From contig NC_057756.1 in NCBI RefSeq assembly GCF_004010195.1, forward strand, positions 8,361,200 through 8,395,853: a DNA stretch of 34,654 bases, given 5' to 3'. Every line of letters starts with the position of its first letter. The first letter of the stretch is position 1. This document shows positions 13,860 to 26,445 of the stretch, piece after piece. A program made the translations under genes and the position numbers. Under the pieces are notes generated by a model, which ran no database searches, was not told the DNA's origin, and saw nothing but the letters and a program-made list of their open reading frames with translations. The DNA comes from Chiloscyllium plagiosum (taxonomy: Eukaryota).

Positions 13860-14332
13860 GGGTGGCACAGTCCCTCAGCGGTTAGCACTGCTGCCCCACC
13901 GCGCCAGGGACCCGAGTTTGATTCCAACCTTTGGTGGCTATCTCTGGAGAGTTTGCACATTCTCCTCCGGTTTCCTCCCATGCTCCAAAGATATGCAGGT
14001 TAGGGTGGATTGGCCGTGCTAAATTGTCCTCATAGTGCCCAGGGATGTGCAGGTTAGGGTGGATTGGCCGTGCTAAATTGTCCCCGTAGTACCCAGGGAT
14101 GTGCAGGTTAGGGTGGATTTGCTGTGCTAAATTGTCCCCGTAGTGCCCAGGGATGGGCAGGTTAGGGTGGATTGGCCGTGCTTTATTGCGCTTAGTGTTC
14201 TGGGATGTGTCGCTGAGCTGATTGGTCAGGGGTAAACGGAGAGTGAAGGGGTAGGAGTGAAGGATCTGGGTGGGTTACTCTTTGGAGGGTCGGTGTGGAC
14301 GTGTTGGGCTGAAGGGCCTGTTTCCACACTGA
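13860..14332 (+). mobile_element. HE1-type SINE with a 4x 54-bp internal tandem expansion
   Basis: tRNA-like head GGTGGCACAG...GGTTAGCACTGCTGCC, V-domain, units GCAGGTTAGGGTGGATTGGCCGTGCTAAATTGTCC at about 13995-14190, SINE tail. Confidence 0.88.
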
Positions 14333-14389
14333 TGAACAGATGAGATTAAGCATCGGGTGACAGAGTGAGGGAGGAGTGTGCAGGGACGG

Positions 14390-15300
14390 TCAGTGCTTCA
14401 GGACTCTAGCAAAGGCATTCAGAGGATACCGCAGGCCATCCTTCAGCTCCTGACGGAACCTGCTCTGAGTGACTGTGTAAATGCAACCGTTGGTGCAGCA
14501 GCTGAGCAGCTGGAGCATGTTTGCACCCTCCTGGAGGATAAACCTTGGGTCACTGGCATTGAAACCAGCAAAGTAAGAGCCCTTGTGGAACTGGACGTAG
14601 AAGAAATTGACGACGTAGGTCGTCCAGAGCAGGACGAAGGCGCCCGAGACGGCAAAGAGCAGGACGATGGATCTCCTGCGGTTATCTGCCTCTGGATCGC
14701 TCCGTCCTGTCAGGAGAGCTGGAGCTCGGAGCCTCCTGCGGGCACTATTAGCAGCTAGGACATGCCTAATGGTGAAAGCGTTGAGCAGGAGGATCAGCAA
14801 GAAGGGGGCACACGGGGTCAGGAGGCGATCGAGCCAGTCAAATGCCTTCCAGGCAGGGGAGGAGTAGAACGCAGGTTTGATGCTGCAAAACCAAGGCTGG
14901 CCATTGATGATGTAGAGTGGCTCATACGTGAAATAGAAAGGGATGTTTTTCAGGCAGCATAGCATGCTGACCGTCCCGATGACCACCGCCGCTGTCCTCT
15001 GGGTGCAGTGTCGGGCTTTCAGCTTCTGGAGACAGATGGCAATGAAGCGATCCAAAGTGAAGGCCACGGTCAGCCAGACAGAGCTGTCGCGGGCCGCGTA
15101 GATGAGCACAGTGCTGAGGCTGCAGCCTGGCGTGCTGGAGAAGAGGCTGAGCGGGAAATAGATGCCGCTGATGCGGTTCAGTACCACTGCTGTGATGACC
15201 AGGAGTAGATCGGTCACTGCCATGGCCACCAGGTAACGGCTGACGCAGCCAGAGAGGCCGCACTTTCCCCGACACAGGATCACAATCACCATCAAATTCA
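14390..15300 (-). CDS. GPR139/GPR142-like class A GPCR, coding exon 2 (end of TM1 through TM7 and C-terminus)
   Basis: Intact frame to a TGA stop; acceptor ttgtctgttccgacag| at 15301; motifs NLMVIVILCRGKCGLS, YLVAMAVTDLL, WLTVAFTLDRFIAIC, TPCAPFLLILLLN, SIVLLFAVSGAFVLLW, LQLLSCCTNGCIYTVTQSRFRQE. Confidence 0.93.
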
Positions 15301-15622
15301 CTGTCGGAACAGACAAGTCACTCGTGTGAAAGGAGCGAATTCTATAGCATAGAGAGAGCAAGATCACATTTTTGTGTTGCATGCCTGATCCCAGTAAGAC
15401 ACCTTGACATTATCCAGAGCTCCAAAATTCCTTCCAAAATGCTTGCTTCTTATAGTTGATTAGCTTGCATTTGCTACAATAAAGAGCGTCTGCTTCATTC
15501 TTTGGAGCTTGGGTGCCGACTAAGGATGGGGATTGCCAGACATATACTGGCCAGTCTGCAAACAGGGCTGTACCAATTCTGGTGGCTTACTGTTGTAATT
15601 TATCTTCCTGTTGCAGTGACTC

Positions 15623-16425
15623 AGAATCATACAAACCCCACACAATGGAGGCAAGCCACTCGGCCTACTGAGTCCATGCTGACCATTTAAAAAGCAACCC
15701 ATCCAGACACCCACCCAGAGTCCTCTAATCCTATGTTTCCCATGGATAATCCCCCCAGACTGCACATCCCTACACACTATGGGACAATTTGGCATGGCCA
15801 ATCCACCCTAACCCGCACCTCCCTGGGCACTACGGGGACAATTTAGCACAGCCAATCCACCCTAACCTGCACATCCCTGGGTACTACAGGGCAATTTACA
15901 ACGGCCAATCCACCCTAACCTGCACATCCCTGGGTACTACAGGGCAATTTACAACGACCAATCCACCCTAACCTGCACATCCCTGGGTACTACAGGGCAA
16001 TTTACAACGACCAATCCACCCTAACCTGTATATTCCTGGGCACTATGGGACAATTTAGCATAGCCAATCCAACCTAACCTGCAAATCCCTGGGCACTATG
16101 GCTGATTTAGCACTGCCAATCCACCCTAACCTGCACATCCCTGGGCAGTATGGGACAATTTAGCACGGCCAATCCACCCTAACCTGCACATCCCTGGACA
16201 CTACGGGGACAATTTAGCACGGCTAATCCACCCTAACCCGCACATCCCTGGGCACTACGGGGACAATTTAGCACGGCCAATCCACCCTAACCTGCACATC
16301 TTTGGACTGTGGGAGGAAACTGAGCACCCAGCGGTAACCCACACAGACACGGGGCAGTCACCCGAGAGTGGAATTGAACATGTGTCCCTGGCGCTGTGAG
16401 GCTGTAGTGCTAGCCACTGTGCCAC
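15623..16425 (-). mobile_element. HE1-type SINE with about 10x 52-55-bp internal tandem expansion (about 15760-16300)
   Basis: Head at 16370-16425, V-domain at 16290-16350, units CCAATCCACCCTAACCTGCACATCCCTGGGCACTACGGGGACAATTTAGCACGG. Confidence 0.9.
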
Positions 16426-16569
16426 TCCAGCACTACAGTGTTTTCACCTCCTTGACCATTCCTTTCTCCCTCATATCCTTAGCACGGTCAGTCCTCATGT
16501 TGGCCAAATTATTGACTACTGTGAAGCCATCACGTCTGCAGCTTGCTTTCTTATCAGAAGAAGCTTCCC

Positions 16570-19560
16570 TGTTCCTGGAAATCTACGACCAAGGTGGTCT
16601 ACACCTGAACCAGAGAGATACCAATATCTTGCCGGGTGGGAGCTTTGCTAATGGTCTTTGGGAGGGTTTAAGCTAAGTCAGTAAGGTGATGGAAATTTGA
16701 ACTGTAGTTCCAGTATCCAGGCAATTGAGAGTAGTGAGGTCAGAAATAAGGTTTCAAGGTCACAACTGCACCAGCAAATGGGAAGGTGGTTTGAAGTGTG
16801 TCTACTTCAATGCCAGGAGCATCCTGAATAAGGTGGGTGAACTTGCAGCGTGGGTTGGTACCTGGGACTTTGACGTTGTGGCCATTTCGGAGACATGGGT
16901 AGAGCAGGGACAGGCATGGATGTTGCAGGTTCCGGGGTTTAGATGTTTCAGTAAGAACAGGGAAGGTGGTAAAAGTGGGGGATGTGTGGCATTGTTAGTC
17001 AAGGACAGTATTACAGTGGCAGAAAGGACACTTGAGAATTTGTCGATTGAGGTAGAATGGGCTGAGGTTAGAAACAGGAAAGGGGAGGTCACCCTGTTAG
17101 GAGTTTTCTATAGGCCTCCAAATAGTTGCAAAGATGTAGAGGAAAGGATAGCAAAGATAATTCAGGATAGGAGCGAGAGTGACAGGATAGTTGTTATGGG
17201 GGGGGGGGGGGGGGGGGTTAACTTTAAATAGCGACTGGGAATACTGTAGTTTCAGTGGTTTAAATGGGTCATCTTTTGTCCACTGTGTGCAGGAGGATTT
17301 TCTGACACAGTATGTAGACAGGCCAACAAGGGGCGAGGCCATATTGGATTTGGTACTGGGTAATGAACCCGGCCAGGTGTTAGATTTGGTGGTAGATGAG
17401 CACTTTGGTGATAGTGACCACAATTTGTTTATGTTTAGCGATGTTAAGGGGTAGGTATATAACCACATGGCAAGAGTTATAGCTGGGCTGAAAGGCAATT
17501 ATGATGTGATTTGGCAAGATTTAGGATGCATAGGATGGGGAAGGAGACTGCAGGGGCTGGGCACAATAGAAATGTGGAGCTTATTCAAGGAACAGCTACT
17601 GCATGTCCTTGATAAGTATGTACCTGTCAGGCAGGGAGGAAGTGGTTGAGTGAGGGAGCCATGGTTTACTAAAAGAGTTGAATCTCTTGTCAAGAGGAAG
17701 AAGGAGGCTTATGTTAGGATGAGATGTGAAGGCTCAGGGTGCTTGACAGTTACAAGTCAGCCAGGAAAGACCTAAATAGAGAACTAAGATGAGCCAGGAG
17801 GGGACATGAGAAGTCTTTGGCAGGTAGGATCAAGGAAAACTTTAAAGCTTTCTATTGGTAGGTCAGGAATAAAAGAATGACTAGAGTAAGATTAGGGCCA
17901 ATCAAGGACTGTAGGGGGAAGTTGTGTGTGGAGTCCGAGGAGATGGGGAAGCGCTAAATGAATATTTTTTGTCAGTATTCCCACTGGAAAAAGACAGTGT
18001 TGTGGAGGAGAATGTTGAGATACTGGTGACTAGACCAGACGGGATTGAGGCTCATAAGGAGGAGGTGTTAGCCATTCTGGAAAGTGAGAAAATAGACAAG
18101 TCCCCAGGGCCAGATGGGATTTATCCGAGGATTCTCTGGGAAGCCAGGGAGGAGATTGCNNNNNNNNNNNNNNNNNNNNNNNNNNNNNNNNNNNNNNNNN
18201 NNNNNNNNNNNNNNNNNNNNNNNNNNNNNNNNNNNNNNNNNNNNNNNNGGTGACCAAACAGGTGGATGAGGGTAAAGCGGTTGATGTGGTGTATATGGAT
18301 TTCAGTAAGGCGTTTGATAAGGTTCCCCATGGTAGGCTACTGCACCAAATACGGAGGCATGGGATTGAGGGTGATTTAGCGGTTGGGATCAGAAATTGGC
18401 TCACTGAAAGAAAACAGCGTGTTCTCTCTGGGGGCTGGTTGACAGGAAGGTGGTAGTGGGGGTAGGTACAGCCTGGCAACTCTTGCCAGCAGCCTGTTTA
18501 TCCAACTACAGGACAGGTGGCTCTTCAACCAAGGAGGGCATCACTTGCTGAGAAGCTCCCTCCCTGATCACATACAACTATTCCACCACCTCTGTCCTGT
18601 CTGTCCCAGGGATGGTGGTGGTTGATGGGAAATGTTCATCCTGGAGCTCAGTTACCAGTGGGGTACCACAGAGTCTATTCTGGGGCCACTGCTGTTGGTC
18701 ATTTTGATAAATGACCTGGATGAGGGTGTGGAAGTATGGGTTAGTAAATTTGCGGTTGACACTAAAGTCGGTGGAGTTGTGGATAGTACTGAAGGATGTT
18801 GCAGGTTACAGAGGGACAGAGATAAGCCGCAGAGCTGGGCTGTGAGGTGGCAAATGGAGTTTAATGCGGAAAAGTGTGAGGGGATTCACTTTGGAAGGAG
18901 TAACAGGAATGCAGAGTACTGGGCTAATGGTAAGATTCTCGGTAGTGTAGATGAGCAGAGAGATCTCAGTGTCCATGTACACAGATCCCTGAAAGTTACC
19001 ACCCAGGTCGATCAGGTTGTTAAGGCGTACGGTGTGTTAGCATTTATCGGGAGAGGGATTGAGTTTCAGAGCCACGAGGTCATGCTGCAGCTGTACAAAA
19101 CTTTGGTGCGGCCGCACTTGGGAGTATCGCGTACAGTTCTGGTCACCGCATTATAGGAAGGATGTGGAAGCTTTGGAAAGGGTTCAGAGGGGATTTCCCA
19201 GGATGTTGCCTGGTACGGAGGGAAGGTCTTATGAGGAAAGGCTGAGGGACTTGACAGGGAGAGGCTTTTCCCTCGGATGGTGATGGCTAGCACGAGGGGA
19301 CACAGCTTTAAATTGAGGGGGTGATAGATATAGGACAGATGGCAGAGGGAGTTTCTTTACTCAGAGAGTAGGAGGGGGCGTGGACCACACTGCCTGCCAC
19401 AGTAGTAGACTCGCCAACTTTAGGGGTATTTAAATGGGCATTGGATAGGCATATGGATGAGAATGGAATAGGGTAGGAGAGAGGGGCTTCAGATTGGTCA
19501 GCACAACGTGGAGGGGCCGAAGGGCCTGTACTGTGCTGGAATGTTCTATGTTTATGTATG
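16570..19560 (+). mobile_element. Near-complete but inactivated CR1 LINE (ORF1 end, APE endonuclease, RT, 3' UTR), antisense within the GPCR intron
   Basis: ORF1 esterase-like GGLHLNQRDTNIL; APE YFNARSILNK, AISETW, GVFYRPPN, ILDLVL, FGDSDHN; RT SPGPDGIYPRIL, YMDFSKAFDKVPH, ILGPLLLVILINDL, KFAVDTK; stops, frameshifts and a gap; (TATGT)-like tail. Confidence 0.95.
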
Positions 19561-19584
19561 GTCTATGTATCTTGTTCCAATACA

Positions 19585-20320
19585 AAGTCACAGAGATGTA
19601 CAGCATGGGAACAGACCCTTCGGCCCATCTCATCCATGCCGACCAGATACCCTAAATTAAGCTAGTCCCATTTTCCAGCATTTGACCCATATCCCTCGAA
19701 ATCCTTCCGATTCATATTCCCATCCAGACGCCTTTCAAAGGTGGCCAGCCTCCACCATTTGCTATGGCAGCTCATTCCATGCATGCACTACCCTCTGCGG
19801 GAAATAGTTGCCCCTGTTTAAATCTTTCCCCCTTCACCTTAAACCTGCGCCCTCTACTTTTGGACTCCCCTACCCTGGGAAGAAAGATGTTAGGTATTCA
19901 CCATGCCCCTCATGATTTTATAAACCCTCTATGACCTCTGTGTAAAGAGAAAATAACTCCAGCCAATTCAGCCTCCCCCGATCCTGGTAACGTCCTCGTC
20001 AATCTTTTCAGAACCCCTTCCAGTTTTAACAACAGCTTTCTTATAGCAGGGAGACCCAGAACTGAACACAGTATCCCAAATGTGGCCTAACCAATACACC
20101 CGCAACATGACCTCCCAACTCCCGGACTGAATAGGACTGAACAGTAAAGGTATTCACCATCCTGTCTCCCTGCATCTCCACTTTCACGGGACCACAAAGC
20201 TGCAGTCTCTTTGTTCTGCAACTTGCCCCAGGACCCTTCCGTTAACTGTGAAAGTTCTGCCCTGATTTGCCTTTCCAAAATACAACGCCTCACATTTATC
20301 TAAATTAAACTCCACATGGC
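19585..20320 (-). mobile_element. CR1 3' fragment, tail-to-tail with the previous element
   Basis: Similar to 3720-4410 and 31365-31480. Confidence 0.85.
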
Positions 20321-20587
20321 ATTGGCTCTGGATGAAGACACAGTCTTTCTGTTACACAAAGCAACCAATTGTCAAGAAAGTTTCAAAACAGATCTGCTTA
20401 TGTAGCTTTGATTCCTTCTCCCAAAAGTGACTATTTGACTTCAGTTATTGTAGTTTATTCCAGACAGACTTATTGCTGGTTCTTTCTGTGTGTAACAGTT
20501 GTTCTGAAGTTTGCACTGTCACATAAGTAACATTGACACTATACAAATGACCATCTTCAACGAGAGAGAATCTAGCCATCGCCTACT

Positions 20588-20865
20588 TAGATTAGATTAG
20601 ATTCCCTACAGTGTGGAAACAGGCCCTTTGGCCCACTGACCCTCCGACGAGCAACCCACCCAGACCCATTCCCCTACATTTACCCCTTCACCTAACACTA
20701 CGGGCAATTTAGCACGGCCAGTTCATCTGACCTGCACATCTTTGGATTGTGGGAGGAAACCCACACAGACACGGGGAGAACGTGCAAACTCCACACAGAC
20801 AATGGGAATTGAACCCGGGTCCCTGGCGATGTGAGGCAGCAGTGCTAACCACTGAGCCACCGTAC
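20588..20865 (-). mobile_element. HE1-type SINE
   Basis: Minus strand reads GGTACGGTGGCTCAGTGGTTAGCACTGCTGCCTCAC...GGGTTCAATTCCC, V-domain and (CTAAT)n tail. Confidence 0.9.
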
Positions 20866-20874
20866 CGGCCTGTA

Positions 20875-21720
20875 ATTTGACATCCAATGGCTGAATCCCC
20901 TCCACAAACAACATCCTGGTTGGGGGGGGCAACCGTTGACCATAAACTGAACTGGACCCAGCCATATTGACTACAAGTCGAGGTCAGAGGTGAAGATCCT
21001 GCAGTGAGTAACTTCCCCGTCTGACTCCCCACACCCTGTCCACCACCTACAAAGCTAAAAGTGAGGACTGCAGATGCTGGAGATCAGAGTGCCCTTCCAC
21101 CGACGCTCTCATTCGTTTGGCTGAACTGGTCCCCACCCTGAACGATTTCTCCTTCGAATCCTCCCGCTTCCTCCAGACCAAAGGGGGTAGCCGTGGGCCC
21201 CAGCTACCCCGGTCTCTTCGTTGGTGCTTTTCCAGCCTCCCCACCCCTACGGAGTCAGGAGGGTGAGGGAACACGCCCCACTCGCCCGGGCGGGTGCGGC
21301 TTCGGCCAGCGCACGAGGAACCCGACACCGTCCGGGACAGAGCAGCCCCCTGCTTGATTGGCACCGCGTCCAACAGCTTCGTAACCCTCCCCCACCGACG
21401 CAGCCACGTGTGCCACCTGCCCGGGCTGCTTTATCCAAACCTGCCAACACTGTGGAGAGTGGCAAGGGCGAGGGCAGCAGAGATTTGGGAGCACCGCCCA
21501 GTGCAAACTCCCCACCACCCCCACCCAACCAAAGCCACTCGCTGTCCTGACTTGGAAACATTTGGCACAGAATCCCCGAACTCCCTGGTGGCACTACAAA
21601 GGGGTGCCCGCACCACCCAGGGCACCAGAGCGGTTCGTGAAGGTAGCTTACTCCTCACCTTCTCAACTCGGATCAGTAACGACATGTTGAGTGATGGGAT
21701 GCATCCCGTGAAAGATGAAC
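20875..21720 (+). mobile_element. Second-family CR1-clade LINE 3' fragment, interrupted by a Penelope RT piece
   Basis: ACCGTTGACCATAAACTGAACTGGACC, CAGTGAGTAACTT...GACTCCCC, AGCAGCCCCCTGCTTGATTGGCACC; shared with 9740-9903 and 31735-31835. Confidence 0.7.
21056..21235 (+). mobile_element. Penelope-like element fragment (terminal extension plus RT segment)
   Basis: PSTDALIRLAELVPTLNDFSFESSRFLQTKG / VAVGPSYPGLFVG, the Penelope RT 'Q..G.AMG...PSYA.LF' region, with a frameshift. Confidence 0.8.
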
Positions 21721-21934
21721 CGAAAGCAAACCTTCACACCTCTAAACAACACTTCGGTCCAACCAGGAGGAATAAAATTCCAGCGACACTTCTGAATCAT
21801 TTCAAAGTGCCATTCTGACAGCAATTTCCCACACGGTACGGAGCAACGGGCTTGCTTTCCGAAGTTAGGCTCGTTCAATTAAAACAAGTGCACGTTCAAC
21901 ACTTGAATTTTAGATTTCTAAGCTCAAACTGCCA

Positions 21935-22122
21935 CAGGGTGGCTGAGTGGCATTATCGTGAGACTCTGAATCACGAGGACCAGCTAATGTGCTGGGGACC
22001 AGCATTCAAATCTTGCCCCGGGAGACAGCGGGGAAAATCGGGAATTGCAAAGCTGACTGGGGACCGTGAAACTGTTGTCAATAGTCAGGTTAAAAAAACC
22101 ATCGAGTTCACTAATGCCTTTG
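21935..22122 (+). mobile_element. 5' part of the second tRNA SINE family
   Basis: GGGTGGCTGAGTGG...GGGGACCAGCATTCAAATC...GTTCACTAATGCCTTT; complementary to 8690-8795. Confidence 0.55.
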
Positions 22123-23330
22123 TATCGATCCCCAAACTAATCCCACTGCCCCNNNNNNNNNNNNNNNNNNNNNNNNNNNNNNNNNNNNNNNNNNNNNNNN
22201 NNNNNNNNNNNNNNNNNNNNNNNNNNNNNNNNNNNNNNNNNNNNNNNNNNNNNNNNNNNNNNNNNNNNNNNNNNNNNNNNNNNNNNNNNNNNNNNNNNNN
22301 NNNNNNNNNNNNNNNNNNNNNNNNNNNNNNNNNNNNNNNNNNNNNNNNNNNNNNNNNNNNNNNNNNNNNNNNNNNNNNNNNNNNNNNNNNNNNNNNNNNN
22401 NNNNNNNNNNNNNNNNNNNNNNNNNNNNNNNNNNNNNNNNNNNNNNNNNNNNNNNNNNNNNNNNNNNNNNNNNNNNNNNNNNNNNNNNNNNNNNNNNNNN
22501 NNNNNNNNNNNNNNNNNNNNNNNNNNNNNNNNNNNNNNNNNNNNNNNNNNNNNNNNNNNNNNNNNNNNNNNNNNNNNNNNNNNNNNNNNNNNNNNNNNNN
22601 NNNNNNNNNNNNNNNNNNNNNNNNNNNNNNNNNNNNNNNNNNNNNNNNNNNNNNNNNNNNNNNNNNNNNNNNNNNNNNNNNNNNNNNNNNNNNNNNNNNN
22701 NNNNNNNNNNNNNNNNNNNNNNNNNNNNNNNNNNNNNNNNNNNNNNNNNNNNNNNNNNNNNNNNNNNNNNNNNNNNNNNNNNNNNNNNNNNNNNNNNNNN
22801 NNNNNNNNNNNNNNNNNNNNNNNNNNNNNNNNNNNNNNNNNNNNNNNNNNNNNNNNNNNNNNNNNNNNNNNNNNNNNNNNNNNNNNNNNNNNNNNNNNNN
22901 NNNNNNNNNNNNNNNNNNNNNNCTCTCTCTTCCCATAGCCCTGCATCAATCCCCAAACTAATCCCACTGCCCCCCGCTCTTTCCCCATAGCCCTGTATCA
23001 ATCCCCAAACTAATCCCACTGCCCCCCGCTCTCTCCCCATAGCCCTGTATCAATCCCCAAATAATCCCACTGCCCCGCTCTCTACCCATAGCACAGTATC
23101 GATCCCCAAACTAATCCCACTGCCCCGCTCTCTACCCATAGCACAGTATCGATCCCCAAACTAATCCCACTGCCCCACACACTCCCCATAGCCCAGTATC
23201 CATCCCCAAACTAATCCCACTGCCCCCACTCCCTCCTGATAGCACTGTATCAATCCCCAAACTAATCCCACTGCCCCCCGCTCTCTCCCCATAGCCCTGT
23301 ATCAATCCCCAAACTAATCCCACTGCCCCG
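22122..23330. repeat. About 52-bp minisatellite spanning a gap, just inside the GPCR intron near exon 1
   Basis: Unit CCCTGTATCAATCCCCAAACTAATCCCACTGCCCCCCGCTCTCTCCCCATAG present on both sides of the gap. Confidence 0.92.
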
Positions 23331-23510
23331 TGCTACCACTGAACCCCGTATTAATTCTGACCCTTGCTGTCAAAACTCTCCATCTCAGAAAAGTGAGATC
23401 TGGTTGCTCTTTGCCTCTCTGATGTGAAATATTCCCGGGTGTTGAGATGCCCCGACCCCATTACGGAAGTGCCAGGGCACTCAGTCGAGGAGTTTATGAG
23501 ACGGTCTTAC

Positions 23511-23580
23511 CTGGGATGCCAATGGCTGCCAAGGTGGGATAATAAATGGCATATCCCAGTCCAGTGAGGGGCCCATGCAT
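23511..23580 (-). CDS. GPR139/GPR142-like GPCR, coding exon 1 (MHGPLTGLGYAIYYPTLAAIGIP)
   Basis: AAAATG start; 70 nt ending CCA G|GTAAG; the phase-1 join to exon 2 (G+TG = Val) gives the family TM1 motif IYYP..AAIGIPVN. Confidence 0.9.
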
Positions 23581-23635: not shown

Positions 23636-23641
23636 CTTATA
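23636..23641 (-). promoter_or_regulatory. Candidate TATA box of the GPCR gene
   Basis: TATAAG about 55 nt upstream of the ATG, in non-repetitive sequence. Confidence 0.35.
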
Positions 23642-23769
23642 CCACTCGGTGAAACCTCCAGAGAGACTAAGAGGACCTGGGATTACTTCTGTAACTTCCA
23701 GTCTTCTGAACAAACAAGTCAAGTCTCTGGTGGTTATAAAAAGCTCTTTTTTTTTCCTGATCTCCCCTG

Positions 23770-24964: not shown

Positions 24965-25590
24965 ATAAAGGACTCAGAAAGTCTAAGCTCTCACTTTCGT
25001 GAAATAATCCAGGTAAAATACTGAGAAAGTGTAAGATCTCAGTTATGGAATTAATCCTGGTTAAAAAAAAATGAGCAAGTCTAAGCTCTCAGTTATATGA
25101 TTAATCCAGGTAAAATACTGAGAAAGTAGAAGCTCTCAGCTGTGTGAATAATCCATGTAAAAAACTGAGAAAGTCTAAGCTCTCAGTTATATGATTAATC
25201 CAGGTTAAAAAGTGAGAAAGTCAAAACTCTTAACCATGTGATTAATCAAGGTAAAAGACTCAAAGTCTAAGCTCTCAGTTATGTAATTAATCCGAGTAAA
25301 ATATTGGGAAAGTCTAAGGTCTTAGCTGTGTGATTAATCCAGGTAAAAGACTGAGGAAGTCTAAGCTCTCAGTTATGTAATTAATCCAGATAAAAAACCG
25401 AGGAAGTCTAAACTCTTAGCTGTGTGATTAATCCAGGTAAAAAACAGAGAAAGTCGAAGCTCTCAGTTACGTGATTAATCCAGATAAAAAAAAACGAGGC
25501 AGTCTAAGCTCTTGGTTATATGATTAATCCAGATAAAAGGTTTGATAAAGTCTAAACTCTCAGCTGTGTGTTTAAGCCAGCTAAAGACTC
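24965..25590. repeat. AT-rich ~47-bp minisatellite, about 13 diverged copies
   Basis: Unit GAGAAAGTCTAAGCTCTCAGTTATGTGATTAATCCAGGTAAAATACT. Confidence 0.92.
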
Positions 25591-26321: not shown

Positions 26322-26445
26322 ATTAAAAAGCTGAGAAAGTCTAAGCTCTCAGATTGTGTGAATAATCCAGGTAAAAATACTGAGAAAATTTAAGCTTGTT
26401 AGTTCTGTGATTGATTGAGGTAAAATACCAAGTAGGTTTAAGCTA
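26322..26445. repeat. Continuation of the ~47-bp minisatellite (2-3 copies)
   Basis: CTGAGAAAGTCTAAGCTCTCAGATTGTGTGAATAATCCAGGTAAAAATACTGAGAAA. Confidence 0.85.

Follow-up and report, generated by a model that had tools for sequence, protein, structure and literature searches.

A stretch of 34,654 nucleotides from the genome of the shark Chiloscyllium plagiosum (contig NC_057756.1, positions 8,361,200 to 8,395,853; hereafter the window) holds a gene for a seven-transmembrane receptor on its minus strand, and the locus raises the question of whether this gene is the shark counterpart of GPR139, the name that nearly all of its closest relatives carry, or belongs to a different repertoire. On sequence grounds, we read it as an intact member of a large receptor family that has multiplied in cartilaginous fishes. 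The two-exon gene structure is present in the DNA and its reading frame is unbroken. Coding exon 1 (23580–23511, 70 nucleotides) comprises 23 codons and one base, begins with ATG, ends at the donor GTAAGA and encodes a short extracellular N-terminus and the first half of transmembrane helix 1 (TM1). A phase-1 GT–AG intron of 8,210 nucleotides (23510–15301, with its AG at 15301), which contains two tandem arrays and two assembly gaps, separates it from coding exon 2 (15300–14390, 911 nucleotides), which runs from the remainder of TM1 to the stop codon at 14392–14390. The spliced frame is 326 amino acids long, with zero internal stops.

Several observations tie exon 1 to exon 2. A profile built from the N-terminal 23 residues in 87 relatives scored exon 1 at 63.9 bits and the runner-up among 62,269 window positions at 2.0 bits, so the match is evidently not a product of chance. 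The Heterodontus orthologue (P0004) matches 18 of the 23 exon 1 residues, and the spacing between Met1 and Asn25, residues present in 87 of the 120 best relatives, recurs in the spliced product. Of all in-frame AGs from 15450 to 15251, the one at 15301 alone yields the Asn25 spacing, and it has the richest upstream pyrimidines among them (11 of 16). An in-frame TGA lies six bases 5′ of the exon 1 ATG. The competing single-exon open reading frame of 330 amino acids starts at an ATG at 15382, 82 bases into the intron, and owes its false N-terminus to intronic read-through (15301–15382). A first-pass annotation, made from the sequence alone, had joined a 70-nucleotide exon to the acceptor at 15301 to give a 326-residue seven-transmembrane protein and had called the N-terminus of the 330-residue frame spurious; frame, profile, orthologue and spacing confirm the former, and the intronic position of the ATG confirms the latter. 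The gene is presumably spliced and expressed according to this structure.

The predicted product is a class A (rhodopsin-like) G-protein-coupled receptor. Pfam identified 7tm_1 in exon 2 (E = 3.2e-23) together with a sub-threshold Srw match and nothing else at E ≤ 0.1, and the AlphaFold model of orthologue P0004 (predicted local distance difference test score 88) shows seven long helices as well as helix 8, and its TM1 begins at residue 8. Exon 2 encodes the class A residues D2.50, R3.50 (within DRF), C3.25 with a cysteine in extracellular loop 2 (ECL2), N7.49 and Y7.53, as well as W6.48. Membership of the OR, TAAR, V1R, T2R or V2R families was rejected, given the Pfam result and the nearest solved structures, which are GPR139 and peptide receptors. 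The DRF, LLWTT and NGCIY motifs and the absence of an N-terminal glycosylation sequon, which the first-pass annotation had singled out, are all present, and the sole sequon of the protein is N271, in ECL3. As marks of a peculiar gene, however, these motifs were rejected, because the changes at DRF, position 6.50 and NPxxY are family-wide: DRF is shared by 99 of 120 relatives; position 6.50 is Thr in 79 of 120, with Thr, Leu, Met and Val dominant and Pro outside the four commonest residues; and position 7.50 is Thr in 102 and Pro in 11 of the 120. The exception is Gly at 7.50, which none of the 120 relatives has and which is unique to the window protein. Of 88 relatives starting MH, 0 carry a sequon within their N-terminal 14 residues, and an ECL3 sequon occurs in 47 of 120. 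The motifs characterize the lineage rather than the window gene and on their own are no pointer to a sensory role. The short N-terminus was likewise rejected as a sensory hallmark, because the low-copy relatives in bony vertebrates have one too (24–27 residues ahead of N1.50 in most of them).

The size of the family emerged from a protein search that returned 1,686 matches at E ≤ 1e-3. The best 120 of these comprised 117 named elasmobranch proteins, almost all of which go by 'probable G-protein coupled receptor 139', and 3 unnamed ones. Identity to the window protein was 57–85% for most of the 120, with whale shark (85%) and horn shark (77%) proteins at the top and none above 85% among those listed; both species have clear orthologues of the window gene. 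Within the same best 120 of 1,686, grouped into clusters at 90% identity so that the counts are lower bounds, Heterodontus francisci has at least 42 paralogues and Heptranchias perlo at least 21. In H. francisci, 28 of the 42 lie on one contig of 59.5 Mb (pairwise identity 57–97%), which suggests clustering; in the window, tblastn searches using 17 family proteins turned up no further copy. A search of representatives of 50%-identity clusters gave 114 at E ≤ 1e-30, and all 16 that were looked up, of 68 at E < 1e-58, were chondrichthyan, one of them from Callorhinchus. In trees of 42 and 35 chosen sequences, the window protein falls inside nested chondrichthyan clades (support 100/99 and 100/100), whose exon 1 length and motifs it shares, and forms a group with Rhincodon P0003 and Heterodontus P0004 (100/100). 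The numbers of Heterodontus paralogues and the nested clades support the earlier proposal of an orphan receptor family expanded in cartilaginous fishes, of which the window gene, taken singly, is an ordinary intact member.

The expanded shark set joins an amphibian and sturgeon lineage with support of 94/90, slightly below our support bar, and this lineage is probably its sister. A search with it returned 25 matches: one from each of 20 amphibian species, one from sturgeon and four from the shark family. A second low-copy clade (100/99) unites coelacanth, ray-finned fish, amphibian and reptile proteins with shark members of its own; no mammals or birds occurred among the named sequences in the best 120 of its 145 matches. 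Against invertebrate outgroups, the shark family and the low-copy vertebrate relatives form one group (100/99). The low-copy relatives are 26–31% identical to the window protein and have in common with the shark family the short N-terminus, C3.25 and the missing NPxxY proline. Unlike the shark family, they mostly give one match per species and have a strongly conserved pocket, and one low-copy clade retains E2.61, R6.51 and D7.36 as in GPR139. Published relatives of GPR139 and GPR142 include the non-mammalian GPR210A/B (Rinne et al. 2019, PMC6504862, in whose accessible text the word 'shark' does not occur), and the available part of PMC5207463 also lists 'NMOGPR' and 'Orphan 139-like', with members that are unclear; as names for the bony-vertebrate relatives these are tentative. 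Two low-copy clade members, from Stegostoma (P0311) and Hyla (P0409), appear in annotation as 'transmembrane protein 183A' isoforms. This suggests a location of the low-copy gene within or next to TMEM183A, which might serve as a synteny marker.

Human GPR139 (PDB 7vug, 9m42) was the best, though weak, solved match by sequence (E = 2.9e-9 for exon 2 and 2.2e-13 for full-length P0004), and in a fold search with the orthologue model it also ranked first, marginally over the neurotensin and galanin receptors, at 23–24% identity. GPR139 resembles the window gene in having two coding exons (accessible text of PMC7318219), in lacking the NPxxY proline (the human site reads NFFLY) and in W6.48, N7.39 and an acidic residue at 7.36. 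The agonist pocket of GPR139 has been described as E3x32, F3x33, H5x43, W6x48, R6x51 and N7x38 (available portions of PMC7318219 and PMC12775434). The window protein has I90, Y91, D181, W249, Y252 and N284 at these sites—two identical, one similar and three replaced—so that, numbered by alignment, W6.48 and N7.39 are kept, F3.33 becomes Tyr, and E3.32, H5.42 and R6.51 give way to Ile, Asp and Tyr; D2.61 and P6.50 of GPR139 are absent as well. The shark family, for its part, has C3.25 and an invariant ECL2 cysteine, whereas the aligned GPR139 chain lacks both, and its dozens of copies per genome contrast with one GPR139.

The binding pocket offers the closest view of what the family might do. 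We compared 32 positions, which we take to be those of a generic class A pocket, with the other transmembrane positions of the outer half of the receptor. The window protein is identical to each of its two orthologues at 31 of 32 pocket positions, whereas at the other outer-half positions the identities number 33 of 43 for one orthologue and 34 of 43 for the other (Fisher p = 0.02 and 0.04), and in ten reciprocal-best Heterodontus–Heptranchias pairs pocket identity was 93% versus 84% elsewhere (p = 3e-5). The pocket is kept in orthologues beyond other positions, indicating selection on the pocket and therefore a working receptor. Across 40 broad representatives of the family, the pocket was more variable than the other outer-half positions, with an entropy of 2.31 versus 1.97 bits (P = 0.045, or 0.004 when residues are grouped by class). 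The order is reversed in 39 low-copy relatives, taken from the top of their list, where the values are 0.54 and 1.02 (interaction between the two sets, P = 0.0002–0.01). Every pocket signature differed among the 40 broad representatives, and the 42 Heterodontus paralogues carried 30 distinct 10-residue signatures. This pattern fits a repertoire whose sub-lineages would each keep their own ligands. Polar and charged residues line the pocket of the window protein, among them Arg and Asp on both TM3 and TM5, suggesting a small zwitterionic molecule or a short peptide as the kind of ligand it might accept.

We consider it likely, at somewhat better than an even chance, that the window gene encodes one receptor of a ligand-diversified sensing repertoire. 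Its predicted ligand would be a small polar molecule or a short peptide, held in a transmembrane pocket lined, on our alignment, by R3.36, D3.37, D5.39, D5.42, R5.43, W6.48, Y6.51, E7.36 and N7.39; the receptor would signal through a heterotrimeric G protein, conceivably Gq/11 by analogy with GPR139 only, and different paralogues would recognize different ligands. The likeliest single setting, which we put forward tentatively, would be chemosensory or sentinel epithelial cells that sample outside chemicals. In the same tentative spirit, the genes may constitute a further large chondrichthyan chemosensory family, unrelated to OR, TAAR, V1R, V2R or T2R and annotated as GPR139, built from a GPR139-like orphan gene that is single in amphibians, with the window gene as an intact member; taken together, these propositions fall short of even likelihood. 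Pocket diversification lends indirect backing to the chemosensory or metabolite-sensing role suggested by the first-pass annotation, in which 'chemosensory' has the standing of a hypothesis. OR, TAAR, V1R, T2R, FPR and MRGPR repertoires show comparable lineage-specific multiplication, many copies on one contig, and pockets that are conserved in orthologues and varied in paralogues; the comparison concerns how such families work, as the window protein belongs to none of them by sequence.

A number of observations weigh against this sensing repertoire or blunt the evidence for it. True GPR139 and GPR142 are absent from the trees, and the expanded set was monophyletic in 44% and 66% of bootstrap trees, mainly owing to the divergent P0190. 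The window branch has a length of 0.14 versus 0.037 for the whale-shark orthologue, about fourfold, and of 140 conserved columns there are 18 in which the window protein differs from the family consensus, against a median of 9 (18 was reached by only 4 of 121 sequences); the departures and the long branch could mean relaxed selection. The pocket positions were placed by alignment rather than taken from the model. Among the 42 Heterodontus paralogues, pocket entropy showed no significant excess (1.09 versus 1.00, P = 0.28); a comparison with all transmembrane positions (P = 0.003) had overstated the difference, and the outer-half control removed it. Paralogue pairs even conserve the pocket slightly more than other outer-half positions (73% versus 67%), so within the near subfamily the pattern is loss of constraint and not OR-like hypervariability. 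Moreover, the low-copy set consists of orthologues across species rather than paralogues, so its contrast with the shark family is partly expected, and any family in which the members have different ligands, whether sensory or otherwise, should show a difference between orthologues and paralogues.

Sequencing runs from other individuals and sources bear on the same question. Four runs were compared with positions 14200–15600 of the window, that is, exon 2 and its flanks. Two of them (X2 and X3, of unrecorded type and probably DNA by their size) yielded unspliced contigs that continue beyond exon 2 into intronic sequence (about 99% identity); X1, which we guess to be RNA, gave two depth-2 records on exon 2; and X6, single-cell RNA with about 2 parts in 100 of the run covered, gave reads solely on a repeat tail (14265–14331). 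None of the four showed a joint at 15300 over this interval, nor a loose end there among the records listed, and no spliced read was found in them, a result that is neutral on splicing itself and also to be counted against the gene's proposed role. Contigs from other individuals carry the ECL2 changes P166L (14874) and I154V (14911), which are both of the coding differences listed; such nonsynonymous differences possibly reflect relaxed selection on the window copy and fall on the same side of the balance.

Other functions would account for parts of this evidence. The best-surviving alternative, although unlikely in our view, is a repertoire of immune or barrier tissues, similar to FPR or MRGPR receptors and carried by leukocytes or epithelia rather than by a sensory organ. 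It would account equally for the number of paralogues on one contig and for the diversity of their pockets, and the OR-like genes of catshark are expressed in spleen, testis and stomach and not in the nose (accessible text of PMC11979771); against this, the sequence holds nothing that points to leukocytes.

The paralogues might instead be receptors for a few related endogenous peptides or metabolites, differing mainly in where they are expressed, in neuroendocrine, osmoregulatory or reproductive settings. This idea would agree with GPR139 and peptide receptors as nearest solved relatives, with look-alike invertebrate clusters named FMRFamide-receptor-like, with the retained cysteine pair between TM3 and ECL2 and with the 10-residue signature of the window protein, which is the commonest in Heterodontus (9 of 42). 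However, receptors of endogenous peptides do not usually come in dozens of paralogues per genome, and the 40 broad representatives include no repeated signature; we regard the idea as rather improbable.

We give little credence to a third alternative, in which copies of the family multiplied mostly without function and the window copy is intact merely because it has not yet decayed. The excess of consensus departures, the long branch and the amino acid changes at both listed coding differences are what such a history would leave, but the open frame, both splice sites, a pocket selectively conserved across three genera and supported orthologue groups that span sharks and rays speak for maintenance. 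Finally, that the gene is a shark GPR139 or GPR142 orthologue sensing L-Trp and L-Phe likewise is scarcely credible despite the best solved match in sequence and fold, the automatic names and the retained W6.48 and N7.39, as 23–24% identity compares with 70% between the zebrafish orthologue and human GPR139 (accessible text of PMC7318219), three pocket anchors are replaced and each genome holds dozens of paralogues, all in agreement with the first-pass view that this is not the conserved GPR139.

The family goes under a misleading name. It is annotated as GPR139, and we found no description of it, nor any paper on the shark expansion, in the literature searched, for which several queries were loose and subscription journals lay mostly outside coverage. 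Words starting with 'GPR' do not occur in the main texts, as far as accessible, of reports on catshark (PMC11979771), whale shark (PMC8455134), skate (PMC10115646) or blue shark and skate (PMC12361510); the supplements searched (24 files for PMC8455134, and those of PMC12361510) held one GPR142 entry and zero for GPR139 in their available portions, and in the accessible part of one review (PMC12294341) GPR139 appears only within a reference. Sharks have been credited with a 'relative paucity' of G-protein-coupled receptors (PMC8455134, accessible text), and catshark with 2 OR, 6 OR-like, 3 ORA, 3 TAAR, 2 TARL and 32 V2R genes (PMC11979771, accessible text). With no fewer than 42 distinct paralogues in a single shark, this class A family outnumbers the V2R genes of catshark and sits poorly with the picture of sharks as having few chemoreceptors and few G-protein-coupled receptors. 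Should the family prove sensory, the account of how sharks detect chemicals would change; should it prove immune or endocrine, a large unexplained receptor repertoire would still stand.

Public gene models differ over exon 1. The first-pass annotation had called the exon hidden, which holds for the two whale-shark models of the window gene, both of which lack it, but not for most public models of relatives, which have it. Whale-shark ab initio model P0426 continues through acceptor letters identical to those at 15301. P0032 and P0428, which represent one paralogue, start with a similar apparent intronic read-through, and P0427, of the same cluster, has exon 1. With the 70-nucleotide exon missing from, or swapped for apparent intronic read-through in, P0032, P0428, P0426 and P0003, mis-modelling of the family is common. 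The protein collection searched contained neither the 330-residue nor the 277-residue single-exon version of the window protein. Automatic names for these proteins in shark, ray and chimaera (RefSeq, UniRef) include 'probable G-protein coupled receptor 139', GPR15-like, capa receptor-like and V2 receptor-like.

The surroundings of the gene contain candidate regulatory elements and many repeats. A TATA-like element (23637–23641, minus strand) about 60 nucleotides 5′ of the ATG may belong to the promoter, and an AATAAA (14182–14187, minus strand) about 200 nucleotides 3′ of the stop codon may direct polyadenylation. The putative 3′ untranslated region contains the high-copy repeat tail at 14265–14331 and a 54-bp tandem repeat (13990–14182); both adjoin the only AATAAA of this stretch, and polyadenylated repeat reads accumulate there. 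Upstream of exon 1, by 1.4–2.0 kb, a 47-bp unit is repeated 13 times (24972–25585, 75% matches), with a shorter echo at 26324–26425. Most units contain TAATCC and about half contain TAAGCT, which are presumably K50 homeodomain-type words; their enrichment arises from repetition of the unit, and the array may be regulatory or a plain minisatellite. Close to the exon 1 end of the intron (22925–23329) is a distinct tandem array of 52-bp units, each of which has TAATCC, and a single TAATCC lies at 23680–23685, about 100 nucleotides 5′ of the ATG. At the far end of the window, a 33-bp unit is repeated perfectly in 51 tandem copies (1252–2930, 100% match), an array that is possibly assembly fill.

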